From the IMG/VR virus record IMGVR_UViG_2690316062_000005: a stretch of 44,255 nucleotides of DNA; one strand, written 5' to 3'. The notes beneath the pieces are model-generated. The model made no database searches, had not been told where the DNA came from, and worked only from the letters and a program-made list of their open reading frames with translations. Both the position numbers and the translations under genes were made by a program. Source of the stretch: a virus. Its lineage: Duplodnaviria; Heunggongvirae; Uroviricota; Caudoviricetes. Shown one piece after another: positions 2,835 to 19,528 of this stretch. Position 1 is the stretch's first letter, and each line of letters starts with the position of its first letter.

Positions 2835-5800
2835 TTATGCCTGAGTACGCAGCGCTTCAAGGCGGCGCAGGTCGAAGTCGTTCAGTTCGTCGGTGTAGTC
2901 AGCAGTGATTGGCGCTGGCCATTCACCTGTGTCGAATCCGGTTGCGATATTGCGCATCGCTTTGCGGTACTCGAGCATACCCAGCTCCAGTAGTTCAGCG
3001 GATGCCTCGATGATGGCGATCCAGTGGTAGTTCTCGTCTTTGTTGACGAAAATCCAGAAGAACTGATCCAGCGCTGCGGTTTCGCAGTACATAGCCGCGC
3101 TCAGGTGATAATCACGTTCAATAATTTCCCGGTGTAGCCTGGCGCGCAGGCTTTCCTGCTTAACATTCCACATGCTGATGGTTTTCAGGTCTGCACCTAT
3201 ACGCACGCCATCCAGGTCGATCTCAAGGTCAGGGCGCACACGAACTTCCAAGCCCGTCTCCTCGTCAAAACCAAAGTAGCTCACCTCAACGGCTCGGCTA
3301 GGGTGGGTCAGCAGCATGCCGGCGGTCGGGTGTGCCAGAAGCGCTTTTTGAATATTCAGCGCGGTGCTCAGCTGCTGGCGGGTGACCAGCACTTTTCCTT
3401 CCGGGTTATCGCGCCAGGCATCCAGCAGTTCGTCGGCAAATACGGCATCTGGTTTGACTGCCTTCACGGCCTGGATCATGTCTGCTTTGGTACCGGACAC
3501 TTTCAGTGGTGCCGGTTTCTGTGCTTCCTGAGCCACAAGGTCAGGGTTGATGATTGCCAACTGCTCCAGCAGCGCGTCACGGCTGCCGCTGGTTTTAACC
3601 GGCGGCGGCAGGGTGGCGTTGTACTCTTTAATGCATGCCTTCATTGCCGTCGCCGTCTGCTTCTGGTCACCATCAATACGCTGGAAGTCAGCTGGCAGCG
3701 CCATATAGTTCTGTGCCGTTTCTTCCAGGTTAGCGCCAAGCGGAACCTGCGGCGGCAGGGTGGCGTTGTACTCTTCCAGTAACACCTTGATGTCGTCGGC
3801 AGACAGCAGCGCCGGCAGGCTGGCATTGTGCTCATCGATAAAGGCGCGCAGGGTCGCGGCCGTTGTGAATGCGCCTTCAGGGATCACCGGTTCAACGCTG
3901 AATTCTGCGTCCAGTAGTTCAGGCTGCAACGCCAGCGCATGCACCAAGTTGCCCATGTCCAGCACCGCTGAGCGCTCTTTGACGATGGTTTTCTCTACGT
4001 GGCGCGCATTGAAGTACATCAGCGAAACGCGCGCATCTTTCACCTGGGTTGAGCTGATGCCGTTGGCGGCGTGGTAAACCTCGTTTGGCAGCCCTTCATA
4101 GCGGCCTGGCTCGAAATAAGCGGGATAAACAACAGCTGGTTCGTCAGATTGCGCTTCTGGCTCGGTTTGTGCTGCAACTGGTTCGGTTTGGCTTACAGAA
4201 TCGCTATTTTTGGCGACAGAATCCGTATTCTGGTCTACATCGTCCTTCTGGCTGGTATCTGACTCTTCACCAGACTCCAGACTGCTTTCGCCTGGCTGTA
4301 CTTCATCACCAGCTTGTTTTTCATCACTGACAGTTTCTTGAACCTGCACATTGCTGGTGGTCTCCGTAGCCTTTTTCGTGCCATGAGTTGCTGAGTTCTG
4401 CAGCAAAGCCGTAACGTCGAATATTCCGTTGCCGACATTTTTAACCAGTTCTTGTTCGACTTTCTGCGGTTGTGCTGCCGCTTCCTCTGCGCGGCGGCGT
4501 GCTCCTTCTTCACGCACGCGTTGCAGGTTCTCTTCGTGAGTGCAGAAGGATTTGCGCGGAGACTCCTTACCTTCAGGTTGGGGAATTTCCTGTGCTGCGG
4601 GTTCAGCCTCATGCAACGGCAATAACTCGACCGCGGAATTGAACGCGGCTGTCATGGTCTGGTTAACAAATTCCAGGTGAGCGACAGGAGTTAAATGAAT
4701 ATTTTCCGGTGCGATACGTACCAGGTTAAAAATAGCCGTGCGGTTAACACCCAGAACGCCTGGCTGATTGCGCAGGATGTTGCTCCATGATTTCCATGGT
4801 TCTTCTTTTTTGGTCACGATTTCTTTAGCGCGACGAAGAATGCTGCCCGGGATCTCGAAGTGGTTGAAGTCCATAGGCAGAAGGGCACACGCAATCTCTA
4901 AATCGAGAGTGTCCAGTGTGTGGTGTGCGTCAGGTCCACGGTCAGTGACGTAACCGCCGTCGGCATTAGTGCCGGAATCAGTACGCTGCACACTACTGAT
5001 GCGATTACCGGCGGCCCATTCGCGAACGAGGATACCGCGGTCGATGTGATCTGTAGCGAACCACAATTTCAAAAACTGGATTAAGGTTGCGAGTTCAGGG
5101 ATTTTTCCATCGACAGGGAAGACTTTCTTAACGGCATTCACGACTTTATGAATATCGTGCTCAATGGCTTTTTTGAATGCTTCCACATTCTCAGCTGCCA
5201 GCAGCAGGTTCTGGACGTACGCGTCATCGGTGTCCATCTCAAGGCGGACAATCTCATTTTTCTGCCCTGCGTCGATGTGATAGAGATATTCACCATCACC
5301 GATGAACTGAGCCAGTACGCGCTGGCGGAATGGCAGGGTGGCAACAACGATCAGGTTCGGTTGCTGTGTCTGCTGGGATTGCTCTTCGGTATCGACTTCA
5401 CCATCAACGACGCCACCTTCTGCCCGGCCGTTCTCGTCGGTCTGGATACCGTCCTCAACAGTGAGATCTTGACCCGTTGTAACGTCAGCAGCGTTGCTGG
5501 TTTCAGTTTTGAGCAACTGCAACTTACCACTGCGCCAGTCTTCTACCAGTTGATTGCGGTCACCGGCATCGGTGTTCACCCAGTCAGACATGAATGCAGC
5601 GATCAATCTTGGTTCGTGCTCTTCGTCTGGTGTGAAAATGTCCTTAACCGCCCGAATCATTTTCCACTCAGCATTCAGGCTGAGTTTGGCGGTCGCGGGC
5701 ACATCGTTCCTTGCCACAAGCAGGCTATGGAGATATGTATTGCCTTCATCCAGTGACATTTCGCTGGCAGCCAACTGCTGCTCTTTAGTGACGTGGGTTT

Positions 5801-6224
5801 GGTATTTATCGTTCATCAGATGGACGGCAAAGCGGACCGCTGGAGTACGGTTTTCAACCGGGACAATTTCGGACGCAGTCGCATCTTCAACGATTACGGT
5901 CGGAGTAGGTGTGTAGGGGGCGTCAACGGAACCAGTAGACACACCAGCGGCTTTTGGCAGCCAGGTGCGCCCATCGTCCTGAAGCTCGTAGCGATCACAC
6001 CAGGTAAAATCAACTTCACCTTCTTTCGGCAGGCCGTCGACAACTGGGAAATCAGTGCGAATCGGTTTGGCGTAGTCCTTACCCCGACCTGTTTCGATAC
6101 CTGCATCTTCCAGCGCAACATCCAGCATCAGATTGGCGCGAGCCTCGGTTTTAGCAGTGAACCAGACCACTGCATCTTGCTTTCCGGATTTCTGAGTGGC
6201 TTTAACCACATTAAAGAATTCCAT
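2835..6224 (-). CDS. recE: Exodeoxyribonuclease VIII (RecE-like) with C-terminal PD-(D/E)XK nuclease domain
   Basis: 1129-aa ORF; GAGGA RBS upstream; long acidic/low-complexity N-terminal region and conserved C-terminal nuclease region; paired with recT as in Rac-type prophages. Confidence 0.7.
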   Translation of the reverse strand: MEFFNVVKATQKSGKQDAVVWFTAKTEARANLMLDVALEDAGIETGRGKDYAKPIRTDFPVVDGLPKEGEVDFTWCDRYELQDDGRTWLPKAAGVSTGSVDAPYTPTPTVIVEDATASEIVPVENRTPAVRFAVHLMNDKYQTHVTKEQQLAASEMSLDEGNTYLHSLLVARNDVPATAKLSLNAEWKMIRAVKDIFTPDEEHEPRLIAAFMSDWVNTDAGDRNQLVEDWRSGKLQLLKTETSNAADVTTGQDLTVEDGIQTDENGRAEGGVVDGEVDTEEQSQQTQQPNLIVVATLPFRQRVLAQFIGDGEYLYHIDAGQKNEIVRLEMDTDDAYVQNLLLAAENVEAFKKAIEHDIHKVVNAVKKVFPVDGKIPELATLIQFLKLWFATDHIDRGILVREWAAGNRISSVQRTDSGTNADGGYVTDRGPDAHHTLDTLDLEIACALLPMDFNHFEIPGSILRRAKEIVTKKEEPWKSWSNILRNQPGVLGVNRTAIFNLVRIAPENIHLTPVAHLEFVNQTMTAAFNSAVELLPLHEAEPAAQEIPQPEGKESPRKSFCTHEENLQRVREEGARRRAEEAAAQPQKVEQELVKNVGNGIFDVTALLQNSATHGTKKATETTSNVQVQETVSDEKQAGDEVQPGESSLESGEESDTSQKDDVDQNTDSVAKNSDSVSQTEPVAAQTEPEAQSDEPAVVYPAYFEPGRYEGLPNEVYHAANGISSTQVKDARVSLMYFNARHVEKTIVKERSAVLDMGNLVHALALQPELLDAEFSVEPVIPEGAFTTAATLRAFIDEHNASLPALLSADDIKVLLEEYNATLPPQVPLGANLEETAQNYMALPADFQRIDGDQKQTATAMKACIKEYNATLPPPVKTSGSRDALLEQLAIINPDLVAQEAQKPAPLKVSGTKADMIQAVKAVKPDAVFADELLDAWRDNPEGKVLVTRQQLSTALNIQKALLAHPTAGMLLTHPSRAVEVSYFGFDEETGLEVRVRPDLEIDLDGVRIGADLKTISMWNVKQESLRARLHREIIERDYHLSAAMYCETAALDQFFWIFVNKDENYHWIAIIEASAELLELGMLEYRKAMRNIATGFDTGEWPAPITADYTDELNDFDLRRLEALRTQA

Positions 6225-6363
6225 GTGAGATCCTCATTTTTGGGTGTTAGAATCCCCGGACCATTGATAGCGCCCATTGGGTTAACTTTGGTTTTAATGT
6301 TGTTTCCGGTGTAACTTTGGTCGGTACCACCGGACGTAGATCCCGCCTTGCGCGGGTTTTACG

Positions 6364-6525
6364 TTAGCCTTCGTGAGCCATCTGGTCGTGCGAAGCGCAA
6401 CGTTTGGAGCAATACTCTTTTTCTTTGCGCGCCAGCTGTGAGCCGTTGCGATAGAGAAGGGTGCTCTTGATTACTTCCTCCGTTTTAACCGGCTTGCCGC
6501 AATATCCGCATTTCTTGTCTAACAT
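6364..6525 (-). CDS. Small zinc-ribbon protein (53 aa), not in the supplied ORF track
   Basis: Hand translation MLDKKCGYCGKPVKTEEVIKSTLLYRNGSQLARKEKEYCSKRCASHDQMAHEG; CxxC ... CxxRC; strong GGAGGA RBS 6 nt upstream of ATG, directly after the stop of the upstream ORF. Confidence 0.45.
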   Translation of the reverse strand: MLDKKCGYCGKPVKTEEVIKSTLLYRNGSQLARKEKEYCSKRCASHDQMAHEG

Positions 6526-6536
6526 GACATCCTCCG

Positions 6537-6902
6537 CTAGTGGCTGAGTCCATGCCCCAGACCGTTCAGATAAACTTCAACCAGCAAATCCCTGGTGTAA
6601 GTCATCTCAACGCCGCGATGCAGATACAAACGACCACGAGCATTAGCTGATGCCGTCCAGGTTGAATCCTTGTGTTTGACGAGCATTCCAGGCTGAACTG
6701 CGCCGCGGTTTACCGTCTGTGTACCGTAGTGCTGATGAACCATGATGTTCTCCACTATTGCTGAGTGAACTTCGCTGGTGGTGCCGTGACGCTGATCTTC
6801 ACAGTTGAGCGTTTTAACTCTGCAGTTCACCACCGCGAAACCCACTCTTATGTGCCTGTCTTTTATCCACTTCAGGCTCGGTGGTATGCTGGTAGTTCTC
6901 AC
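6537..6902 (-). CDS. Hypothetical protein (GTG start)
   Basis: 121-aa ORF; start codon is GTG with no clear RBS; its stop abuts the RBS of the zinc-ribbon ORF. Composition unremarkable; weak support. Confidence 0.3.
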   Translation of the reverse strand: MRTTSIPPSLKWIKDRHIRVGFAVVNCRVKTLNCEDQRHGTTSEVHSAIVENIMVHQHYGTQTVNRGAVQPGMLVKHKDSTWTASANARGRLYLHRGVEMTYTRDLLVEVYLNGLGHGLSH

Positions 6903-6922
6903 ACAGCCAGCAAGGAATAACT

Positions 6923-7216
6923 ATGAAATCAGTAACTAAGCCATGTCCTATTTGTGGTGAAGATTCTTTGTCTTTTAACCAGACAAATCAGTTGGTTAAC
7001 ATCAAAGTAAAACCACCAACTATTCGTGAAGTTCCATCAGTGGTTTACGTTTGCGATACTCACGGATGGTTTTCACTTTCAGAACAGATAAACAGACTCG
7101 TCACATCTAATGACGACCCTGCGGCTAAGCAAAAACTGGCTGTTATTGTCAAAGAGCGATATGTGCCGGAACAGGATCAGCCGTTAGCCCTGAAACCTAT
7201 TGAGTCGCTCGCATAA
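6923..7216 (+). CDS. Small zinc-finger protein (YgiT/MqsA-type zinc-ribbon-like)
   Basis: 97 aa; AAGGA RBS 8 nt upstream; CPICG...(about 30 aa)...CDTHG arrangement; on opposite strand to the surrounding leftward early operon. Confidence 0.45.
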   Translation: MKSVTKPCPICGEDSLSFNQTNQLVNIKVKPPTIREVPSVVYVCDTHGWFSLSEQINRLVTSNDDPAAKQKLAVIVKERYVPEQDQPLALKPIESLA

Positions 7217-7911: not shown

Positions 7912-7930
7912 AAAACCGGCATAATGCCGG
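7912..7930 (-). terminator. Intrinsic terminator ending the cI immunity operon
   Basis: CCGGC-ATAAT-GCCGG hairpin (7916-7930) directly after the stop of the 210-aa gene, followed on the minus strand by a U-run (AAAA at 7912-7915 on plus). Confidence 0.5.
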
Positions 7931-7931
7931 T

Positions 7932-8564
7932 TTACTTTGATTTTTCCTGTTGGTGAAGTACTCGTGGAGTAGTTGGTTCTTGAGGTAATTGGATGATAAC
8001 AGGTTGCTGCGCTACTGGTTGAACTACGGGCGGATCACTCTTCAAGGCAGAAACAAGACTAGGTAATGCAACGACAACCGCAATGATAACGCCAAAAATA
8101 GCAAGCCTAGTGGAAATACCTGATTGAATACCGCCAATCGCAGTGTTTATTCCTGTAATTTGCCCTTGTATACCTTCGAATTTGCCATTGATGGCTTTTA
8201 CATCCCCATCAACGCTATCCATTTTCCCTTCAATTTTAGAAGAAATAGAGCTAATAGATGAATTGAGCGATGCCAGCTGAACGTTCATATTCTCGCGTGA
8301 CAAAGCCATTTCAGCTCTAATCGAAGATGCAATGGACTCCATCTCCGCCTTATTGGCAGCTAGAAGTGCTTGCATTTCTTCACGGCTAACTGATGACATT
8401 TCATTTCCCCCATCAGTTTCATTAGCTTCATCTGTTGATTTGATAAAGTTAGTATACATTTCTTCTTTATCGACGCGTAGTCTGTTTTGAACATTGGGGT
8501 ACAGGTCATCTTTATCAATGCCAGAACCGCAGTCTGGGACAGCTTTGAGAGATGGGCCCATCAC
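7932..8564 (-). CDS. Coiled-coil protein with C-terminal transmembrane anchor (unknown function)
   Basis: 210 aa; strong AAGGAG RBS; helical repeat-rich middle; hydrophobic segment LAIFGVIIAVVVALPSLVSAL near C-terminus then Pro/Gln-rich tail; start overlaps stop of upstream gene. Confidence 0.6.
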   Translation of the reverse strand: MMGPSLKAVPDCGSGIDKDDLYPNVQNRLRVDKEEMYTNFIKSTDEANETDGGNEMSSVSREEMQALLAANKAEMESIASSIRAEMALSRENMNVQLASLNSSISSISSKIEGKMDSVDGDVKAINGKFEGIQGQITGINTAIGGIQSGISTRLAIFGVIIAVVVALPSLVSALKSDPPVVQPVAQQPVIIQLPQEPTTPRVLHQQEKSK

Positions 8565-9679: not shown

Positions 9680-9760
9680 AATATTATCGCCACAGCGATT
9701 AATAAGCAAAAAATCGCATAGGCGATTGACATTCGTTAAAGCGATAAACATAATCAACCT
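9680..9760. promoter_or_regulatory. Immunity switch: two 14-bp palindromic operators with divergent pRM / pR promoters
   Basis: ATCGCCACAGCGAT (9686-9699) and ATCGCATAGGCGAT (9713-9726); pR -35 TTGACA (9726-9731) and -10 CATAAT (9749-9754), 17-bp spacer; pRM on minus strand -35 TTGCTT (9704-9709) and -10 TAATAT (9681-9686), 17-bp spacer. Confidence 0.55.
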
Positions 9761-16579: not shown

Positions 16580-16597
16580 CTCAAAGCTTGTAATAAA

Positions 16598-16618
16598 CCC
16601 GCTATATGCGGGTTTTTT
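16598..16618 (+). terminator. Intrinsic terminator
   Basis: CCCGC-TATAT-GCGGG hairpin followed by TTTTTT, 19 nt after the stop of the 367-aa gene. Confidence 0.65.
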
Positions 16619-16743
16619 CTTTCTGGTAGCGCGCTGTGGTAACGCTGTGCCTCCAGCGCTCGCTGAGGCGCTGGTGCGTGCTAATTTGCCGGAGCTTTGT
16701 CAGCAGAAACAAATAGCGGCGTAATAAAACATTGCTAATTCAA

Positions 16744-16762
16744 CCCGCTACGGCGGGTTTTT
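16744..16762 (+). terminator. Intrinsic terminator
   Basis: CCCGC-TACG-GCGGG hairpin followed by TTTTT. Confidence 0.6.
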
Positions 16763-16829
16763 CACTCTCTATTGTATATGCTATTTTTTATGCAATAAGA
16801 GCGATTAGTCGGACGCAACTGGGGAATGC

Positions 16830-19411: not shown

Positions 19412-19506
19412 GATAACTTTCACTAACTCCCTCAATTGGGCTTGCAAAATGCAACAAAATAAGCGATATTTGAAGCTAATTTGATATGTTGCCAACAGTA
19501 TATAAA

Positions 19507-19528
19507 CCCGCCAGTGAGCGGGTTTTTT
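19507..19528 (+). terminator. tR'-like intrinsic terminator downstream of the late promoter
   Basis: CCCGC-CAGTGA-GCGGG hairpin followed by TTTTTT about 100 nt after the Q stop; candidate -35 TTGCAA (19442-19447) upstream. Confidence 0.6.

Follow-up and report, generated by a model that had tools for sequence, protein, structure and literature searches.

Why should an intrinsic terminator lie on the plus strand inside an operon that is read from the minus strand? The question is raised by a short hairpin contained in a 139-bp gap (6225-6363) between two minus-strand ORFs of the window, by which we mean the whole 44,255-nt stretch of DNA that was analysed. The gap belongs to an early-left operon in a lambdoid prophage, with int, recT, recE, ydaE and kil followed by the repressor, cro/cII-like genes, O and P; the prophage is of the phi80/mEp237/Gifsy-like, lambda-like type of E. 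coli, and phage mEp237 has the identical gene arrangement. The names of the neighbours were taken from the RefSeq annotation of E. coli loci that are 99.8% identical over a 451-bp query (window positions 6150-6600). A preliminary description had reported the hairpin CCCGC-CTTGC-GCGGG followed by TTTT at 6339-6358, between genes of the minus strand. Direct reading of the plus strand places the hairpin at 6342-6356 and the four T at 6357-6360; the site had been correctly located, with coordinates off by 2-3 bases and the T-run clipped, and both neighbours are indeed minus-strand ORFs. We conclude, with a probability of roughly 85%, that the hairpin and T-run at 6342-6360 constitute the Rho-independent terminator of a small RNA (sRNA) gene of the IsrB family. 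The parts of this gene and its two neighbours are as follows:

2835-6224, minus strand: gene for a RecE-family exonuclease of 1129 aa (ORF list; 'RecE family exodeoxyribonuclease' in the RefSeq annotation of E. coli loci)
6225-6253, plus strand: predicted sRNA promoter, with a weak -35-like GTGAGA at 6225-6230, a 17-bp spacer, TG at 6245-6246 and TAGAAT at 6248-6253 (promoter scan)
6259-6360, plus strand: predicted IsrB-like sRNA of about 102 nt (match to Rfam RF01386 and to our own model R1; start inferred from the mapped Salmonella 5' ends)
6259-6293, plus strand: 5' domain of the RNA with stem-loop 1 (SL1), core GCCC-AUU-GGGU at 6272-6282 (MFE fold, alignment)
6305-6334, plus strand: stem-loop 2 (SL2), arms UCCGGUG (6305-6311) and CACCGGA (6328-6334), loop CUUUGGUCGG at 6315-6324 (fold, alignments)
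6342-6360, plus strand: intrinsic terminator, stem CCCGC (6342-6346)/GCGGG (6352-6356), loop CUUGC, U-run 6357-6360
6364-6525, minus strand: gene for a ydaE-family small zinc-binding protein of 53 aa (ORF list; RefSeq annotation of E. coli loci)

The terminator consists of five G-C pairs closing a 5-nt loop, with UUUU directly 3' of the stem on the plus strand, and in the RNA fold its flanks ACGUAGAU and UUUUACGU are able to lengthen the stem. With the extended stem, the 31-nt terminator stretch folds on the plus strand to -15.4 kcal/mol (z = -4.06), and none of 200 shuffled sequences did equally well. It should be kept in mind that a scan for the consensus pattern returned 31 terminator-like sites in 20 kb, where shuffled DNA gave 21.3 +/- 4.5; since such patterns are not rare by themselves, the case for 6342-6360 rests on the comparative evidence given below, in which both the pairing and the T-run are seen to be kept in homologues. 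On this evidence the earlier call of a plus-strand intrinsic terminator holds, and the element almost certainly functions as such within the minus-strand early-left operon.

About 100 nt upstream of the terminator, an extended -10 element (TGtTAGAAT, 6245-6253) forms the core of the predicted promoter. On the opposite strand this promoter overlaps the recE Shine-Dalgarno region, and the complement of the recE start codon, CAT at 6222-6224, lies directly upstream of it. TGn together with TA(G/A)(A/G)AT was kept in 98 versions from Enterobacteriaceae and in Salmonella prophage Gifsy-2 (TGTAGAAT, L169 5974-5981), and the promoter is predicted to be active in this prophage as well. The -35 element is poor, and the -10 element may owe part of its conservation to the recE leader, which is encoded on the opposite strand. 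TAGAAT ends at 6253, so that the spacing of the Salmonella 5' ends predicts a start at G6259 or A6260. Promoter, RNA and terminator would then take up the entire recE-ydaE intergenic gap, the ydaE stop codon (6364-6366) being found 3 nt past the U-run. The order of the parts, namely an own promoter, a 5' hairpin, SL2 with its CUUUGGUCGG loop and a Rho-independent terminator, is the architecture of IsrB. In the preliminary description one possible role of the hairpin was to stop antisense transcription; it is indeed a plus-strand terminator, and what it appears to end is not diffuse antisense transcription but a discrete, conserved sRNA gene. We also considered, and rejected, its assignment to the plus-strand integrase gene (1-1194): 5 kb of antisense recT/recE intervenes, and the promoter-terminator unit is self-contained.

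IsrB was itself discovered through orphan terminators, in a screen that yielded isrB-1 and isrB-2 of Salmonella (Padalon-Brauch et al. 2008, PMC2330248). The former is located in Gifsy-2 between sbcA (recE) and STM1010, and the latter in Gifsy-1 between STM2631 and sbcA; both run against both neighbours, in a '<- -> <-' arrangement, and their transcripts, 88 and 94 nt in length, were seen on northern blots and in primer extension and increase strongly when cells starve in minimal medium (PMC2330248). For the 3' end that study took the last U, with the size on northern blots as the sole check. IsrB-1 has in addition been detected in lysogens by RNA-seq, and IsrB-1/2 were present at full length in preparations of outer-membrane vesicles. 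The name 'IsrB' in E. coli papers appears to mean a different K-12 RNA (AzuCR), and such papers were left aside.

Scanning the whole window at the Rfam gathering threshold gave no match, because the window allele scores under the 35-bit cutoff of the family. When the interval 5900-7000 was scanned by E-value instead, RF01386 (isrB) aligned with 6266-6362 on the plus strand over model positions 1-87 of 87, with 28.6 bits, below the gathering score, and E = 0.007; the terminator of the model aligns with the hairpin at 6342-6356. The shortfall results from the variant 3' third of the window copy, terminator included: the allele of phage HK225 and E. coli YPE10, which is identical to the window in its 5' two-thirds, reaches 38.2 bits, and homologues collinear with the window over the whole gene reach 38-50 bits, among them L019, L020, L031 and L037 from other genera with 40-50 bits, all above the cutoff; Gifsy-2 scores 99.3 bits. 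Detection also works in the reverse direction. Our covariance model R1, for which 30 window-type sequences were used and the Salmonella type was left out, gives 112.5 bits on the window at 6258-6362 and finds IsrB-1 in the Gifsy-2 record (L169 5974-6080, plus strand) with 27.7 bits and E = 2e-4 in 84 kb; it also matches Citrobacter L038 (27.7 bits) and L021 (57.9 bits). A second R1 match in the window, at 16666-16763 on the plus strand (15.3 bits, E = 0.13), was taken as chance.

The genomic slot is likewise that of IsrB, with recE on the minus strand (2835-6224), the sRNA on the plus strand (6259-6360) and ydaE on the minus strand (6364-6525); as in Gifsy, the sRNA lies just upstream of recE/sbcA and runs against the genes on either side. 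In the Gifsy-2 record, the recE start codon occupies 5953-5955 (minus strand), TGTAGAAT occupies 5974-5981 and the Rfam hit extends over 5993-6080. This hit fixes the published coordinates and therefore puts the 5' end of the 94-nt form at 5987, which is 6 nt past the -10 element of Gifsy-2; the last U is at 6080, and the STM1010 stop codon begins at 6082. The window shares this geometry, in that its -10 element predicts a start at 6259/6260 and its terminator, like that of Gifsy-2, abuts the next stop codon. The two loci also share the extended -10 type of promoter at equal distance, the succession of SL1, linker, SL2 and terminator, the CUUUGGUCGG loop, and a similar size (88/94 nt versus about 102 nt). 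They differ in the sequences of SL1 and of the linker, which are unrelated, in the 3' arm of SL2, in the terminator (CCCGC-CUUGC-GCGGG in the window and GCCCGC-UUCG-GUGGGC in Gifsy), and in the next gene, which is ydaE in the window and the racC-like STM1010 in Gifsy-2. The host of the window allele is E. coli, its Rfam score is 28.6 versus the 35-bit cutoff, and it is known here from sequence, whereas Salmonella IsrB is known from RNA.

Judged by conservation of sequence and structure, homology and synteny, the window element is a divergent allele of the known IsrB family of prophage sRNAs, in spite of its sub-threshold Rfam score. The kind of element is already known; what is new is this E. 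coli allele, unannotated until now. Of 5426 complete E. coli genomes, 79 carry it according to BLAST, in every case on the chromosome, and no RNA feature is annotated there; pipelines based on Rfam miss the gene because its allele scores below the family cutoff.

The distribution of the element was surveyed in two ways. The first set of homologues was retrieved with a pattern for the SL2 loop, so that invariance of the loop is circular in that set. In the genome collection the pattern yielded 45 stretches, about three quarters of them from Enterobacteriaceae (Leclercia, Kluyvera, Klebsiella, Enterobacter, Citrobacter, Raoultella, Phytobacter, Franconibacter, Silvania and others), the remainder being chance matches in unrelated phyla, and in the viral collection it yielded at least 120 contigs. 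Claims of conservation are based on a second set, comprising 80 viral loci retrieved through the RecE N-terminus alone at 71-100% amino-acid identity. The promoter, SL1 and SL2 are present upstream of recE in all 80; a stem of at least 5 bp, counting Watson-Crick pairs only, occupies the place of the terminator in 77, and at least three T occur among the next five bases after the stem in 76. The stem comes in three versions, CCCGC/GCGGG in 32 loci, GCCGC/GCGGC, with the first pair flipped, in 38, and GCCCAC/GTGGGC in six. The SL2 loop CUUUGGUCGG, which had played no part in the retrieval, is kept in 78 of the 80 loci and in Gifsy-2 IsrB-1.

The stems show compensatory changes. In a 99-sequence alignment (A1), the terminator shows replacements of C-G by G-C in eight sequences, of C-G by A-U in two and of G-C by A-U in one. 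In a 30-sequence alignment (A2), 98.0% of cells are paired in the stated structure, compared with 36-46% when the partners are slid, and double changes are found at five pairs; the observed values were reached in none of 500 shuffles. Helices 1 and 2 are 90-98% paired in A2, with two compensatory pairs, and the sequence of the 5' domain differs among lineages, Salmonella having another SL1 sequence in the same place. Moreover, in the 48 loci with a recE less than 85% identical to that of the window, the sRNA region averages 87% identity, compared with 78% over the initial 708 nt of recE.

The 3' part of the gene has been a site of recombination. Phage HK225 (L003 3109-3214) and E. coli YPE10 (L170 1519-1624) carry a chimera. 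From the promoter up to and including the SL2 loop it agrees with the window at 100% identity; beyond the loop, in the 3' arm of SL2 and in the terminator (GGGCCCAC-TTCG-GTGGGC), it is Gifsy-like, and a racC/STM1010-like gene comes next. The junction is inside the loop (CTTTGGTCGGT). In a further variant, represented by L178 and L198 (3 of the 80 loci), the divergence sets in immediately behind SL2 (CACCGGA, then GCCTTTCAGCATTGCGCTGGGTTATGAA) and no clear terminator is seen beyond; its sRNA may be truncated or re-terminated. With junctions in the loop or right after it, the loop may double as a module boundary.

What might such an RNA do in front of recE? The recE leader is its antisense partner: between a point 3 nt past the ydaE stop codon and one about 35 nt ahead of the recE AUG, every base of the early-left transcript has its complement in the predicted sRNA. 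This full complementarity makes a cis-antisense brake on recE-recT expression the likeliest role, which we put forward tentatively and at somewhat less than even odds. The RNA would be transcribed on the plus strand from the extended -10 sigma-70 promoter at 6245-6253, probably in the lysogen, where the early-left operon is repressed, as judged from the Salmonella homologue, and the terminator would halt it 3 nt before ydaE. Leaky or early pL transcripts could then be cleaved by RNase III in duplex with the sRNA and/or be limited by head-on transcriptional interference. The terminator hairpin has no U-run on the minus strand, and therefore does not block read-through from pL into recET. Masking or unmasking of the recE Shine-Dalgarno sequence by IsrB was considered as well and dropped: modelled binding left its predicted accessibility essentially unchanged (0.16 vs 0.10), which makes translational masking unlikely.

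A precedent for a brake of this kind is OOP of phage lambda, a 77-nt RNA with a constitutive promoter and an intrinsic terminator, which is antisense to an early operon and lowers cII expression by forming a duplex that RNase III cleaves. Like the window sRNA, OOP is a short phage RNA with its own promoter and terminator and is fully complementary to an early-operon mRNA. It differs in belonging to the early-right operon, where it lies over the 3' end of cII, whereas the window sRNA covers the intergenic recE leader; there is no homology of sequence or structure between the two, and the mechanism proposed here is inferred.

Like terminator hairpins in general, the one at 6342-6356 will in addition lend stability to the 3' end of its own sRNA. 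With a structured body and a 4-U tail able to pair with bases 5' of the stem, the RNA would seem to fit the ProQ type of sRNA better than the Hfq type. ProQ, through its FinO domain, recognises terminator hairpins that end in four or more U, and Hfq binding is disfavoured by 5' flanks rich in A (Stein et al. 2020, PMC7367173). Like ProQ-class sRNAs such as RaiZ, the window sRNA is predicted to be highly structured and to finish in a terminator hairpin whose tail is just four U long; its 5' flank ACGUAGAU has no more than a moderate share of A. IsrB is listed among the ProQ-associated prophage sRNAs (PMC5391140), and a literature search joining IsrB-1 and ProQ by name returned nothing. Co-immunoprecipitation of IsrB with Hfq amounted to 2 vs 4 reads, a marginal enrichment, so that the 'Hfq binding' label in Rfam is weakly founded.

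A purely cis-acting role leaves one observation unexplained. Cis-antisense action requires no conservation of sequence, and hence does not account for the invariance of the SL2 loop, which persists in the independently retrieved loci and in Salmonella while the remainder of the RNA diverges. The sRNA might instead act mainly in trans, with the SL2 loop or the U-rich linker pairing with an mRNA of the host or with a transcript from a related phage entering the cell. In that case the RNA would overlap the recE leader only incidentally, and the terminator would be mainly a dock for ProQ or Hfq. The expression of IsrB in lysogens under starvation (PMC2330248) agrees with this view, as does the listing of IsrB as ProQ-associated, given that ProQ-dependent sRNAs such as RaiZ work in trans (PMC5391140). 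Searches of the window provided no target: the complement of the loop (11-mer, at most one mismatch) occurs in the 44-kb window only at the locus itself, with 0.74 chance hits expected, and the sole complement of at least 12 nt to any part of the sRNA within the window is a single 12-mer, at chance level. Furthermore, conservation of the loop might reflect a recombination junction between mosaic modules, since chimeras break exactly there. On balance, we regard a mainly trans-acting RNA as unlikely. Somewhat more doubtful still is a specific version of this idea, in which the near-invariant 10-nt loop, kept from Salmonella Gifsy to E. coli, Klebsiella, Enterobacter, Citrobacter and Kluyvera amid recombining surroundings, marks a conserved trans interaction, for example one in which IsrB of a resident prophage silences the recET leader of incoming phages, or a host mRNA, by a kissing loop, perhaps with ProQ. 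If this version were true, IsrB would be a widespread lysogen-expressed RNA policing recombination functions.

Alternatively, the hairpin could act on the minus strand, within the early-left mRNA, either as a 3'-exonuclease barrier or processing site stabilising the upstream kil-ydaE segment, or as an attenuator or antitermination (nut/boxB-like) element before recE; the first of these options corresponds to the RNA stability element of the preliminary description. The inverted repeat does fold on the minus strand (-12.8 kcal/mol, z = -2.9), where it begins 7 nt past the ydaE stop codon, and compensatory changes of the Watson-Crick type keep the pairing on both strands alike. On that strand, however, the stem is followed by AUCUACGU, which contains no U-run, so that it is not a terminator there, and several conserved features make sense on the plus strand only. 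G.U pairs of the homologues, such as those in the Gifsy-2 terminator (GCCCGC/GUGGGC), in SL2 (a U.G pair in all sequences) and in SL1 (G.U in 26 of 30), become A.C mismatches on the minus strand; the cUUCGg tetraloop, found in many homologues, is special on the plus strand only; and the T-run is kept on the plus side in 76 of the 80 loci. In addition, it is a plus-strand RNA that has been documented for the Salmonella homologue (PMC2330248). These plus-strand features and the mapped Salmonella RNA disfavour a stability element of the operon mRNA, and we consider a minus-strand function improbable.

A nut site of the lambda type can be rejected on its own account. In lambda, nut combines a boxB with a 5-bp stem and a GNRA-like pentaloop (GAAAA/GAAGA type) with a boxA upstream, and is found just downstream of pL. 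On the minus strand of the window, the loop is GCAAG (CGAA in many homologues), which is not a boxB pentaloop of the GNRA type; no boxA was seen on reading the 139-bp gap; and the hairpin is about 1.2 kb from the possible pL (minus strand, 7574-7546), beyond kil and ydaE.

Finally, a chance G+C-rich palindrome, or the relic of a lost racC-like gene between ydaE and recE, which the frequency of terminator-like patterns (31 found vs 21 expected in 20 kb) and the extra gene at this place in HK225, Gifsy and Rac might suggest, is highly improbable and effectively refuted by the comparative data, as position, strand, stem and T-run are conserved over many genera, the stem has compensatory substitutions, the sRNA region is more conserved than the recE coding sequence beside it, covariance models match in both directions (Rfam isrB versus the window and R1 versus IsrB-1), and phages with a racC-like gene also carry the sRNA and its terminator at the equivalent place.

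The IsrB-family gene thus explains both the orphan terminator and the entire 139-bp recE-ydaE gap, as an unannotated sRNA gene. The practical importance of the finding is modest; nevertheless, the strict linkage to the start of recE, the placement of the promoter over the recE ribosome-binding region and the invariant loop lead to testable hypotheses on how recET is restrained in the lysogen. A comparable situation may exist in the Rac prophage of E. coli K-12. There, a hairpin (ATAGCCTGCG-CCATA-CGCAGGCTAT followed by TTCTTT) is found between the recE start and the racC stop (L171, NC_000913.3 1416300-1418300, at about 1160-1190 on the plus strand). Its RNA form, AUAGCCUGCG-CCAUA-CGCAGGCUAU plus UUCUUU, resembles the window element in slot and orientation, in abutting the racC stop codon and in being antisense to the operon. 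Neither Rfam nor model R1 detects an IsrB homologue in K-12 Rac, and a literature search on an sRNA at racC/recE returned nothing relevant. The Rac hairpin may belong to a non-homologous antisense RNA in this slot, and this non-homologous orphan terminator hints that an antisense RNA before recE could be a general design feature of recET modules.

Several other features of the region were recorded in the course of the analysis. Of the sigma-70 matches in the region, the two best are TTGACA-17-CATAAT (plus strand, 9726-9754), which is beside the divergent repressor/cro-like pair and is likely pR, and TTGATA-17-TATCAT (minus strand, 7574-7546), which is directed leftward and is possibly pL. Between kil and this candidate pL, amid the minus-strand early-left region, there is a plus-strand ORF of 97 aa (6923-7216) with zinc-ribbon-like motifs (CPICG ... 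CDTHG). In strain KL53, which has the version of this region closest to the window among E. coli, an IS3 element is inserted upstream of kil (L001 7248-8410); the window has none. Three strong, terminator-like plus-strand hairpins of the type AAACCnGC...GCnGGTTT, with A-runs before and T-runs after them, occur at 7913-7933, 16595-16615 and 19504-19525 and are possibly bidirectional; the first of them abuts the end of the minus-strand ORF 7932-8564, downstream of the repressor gene.
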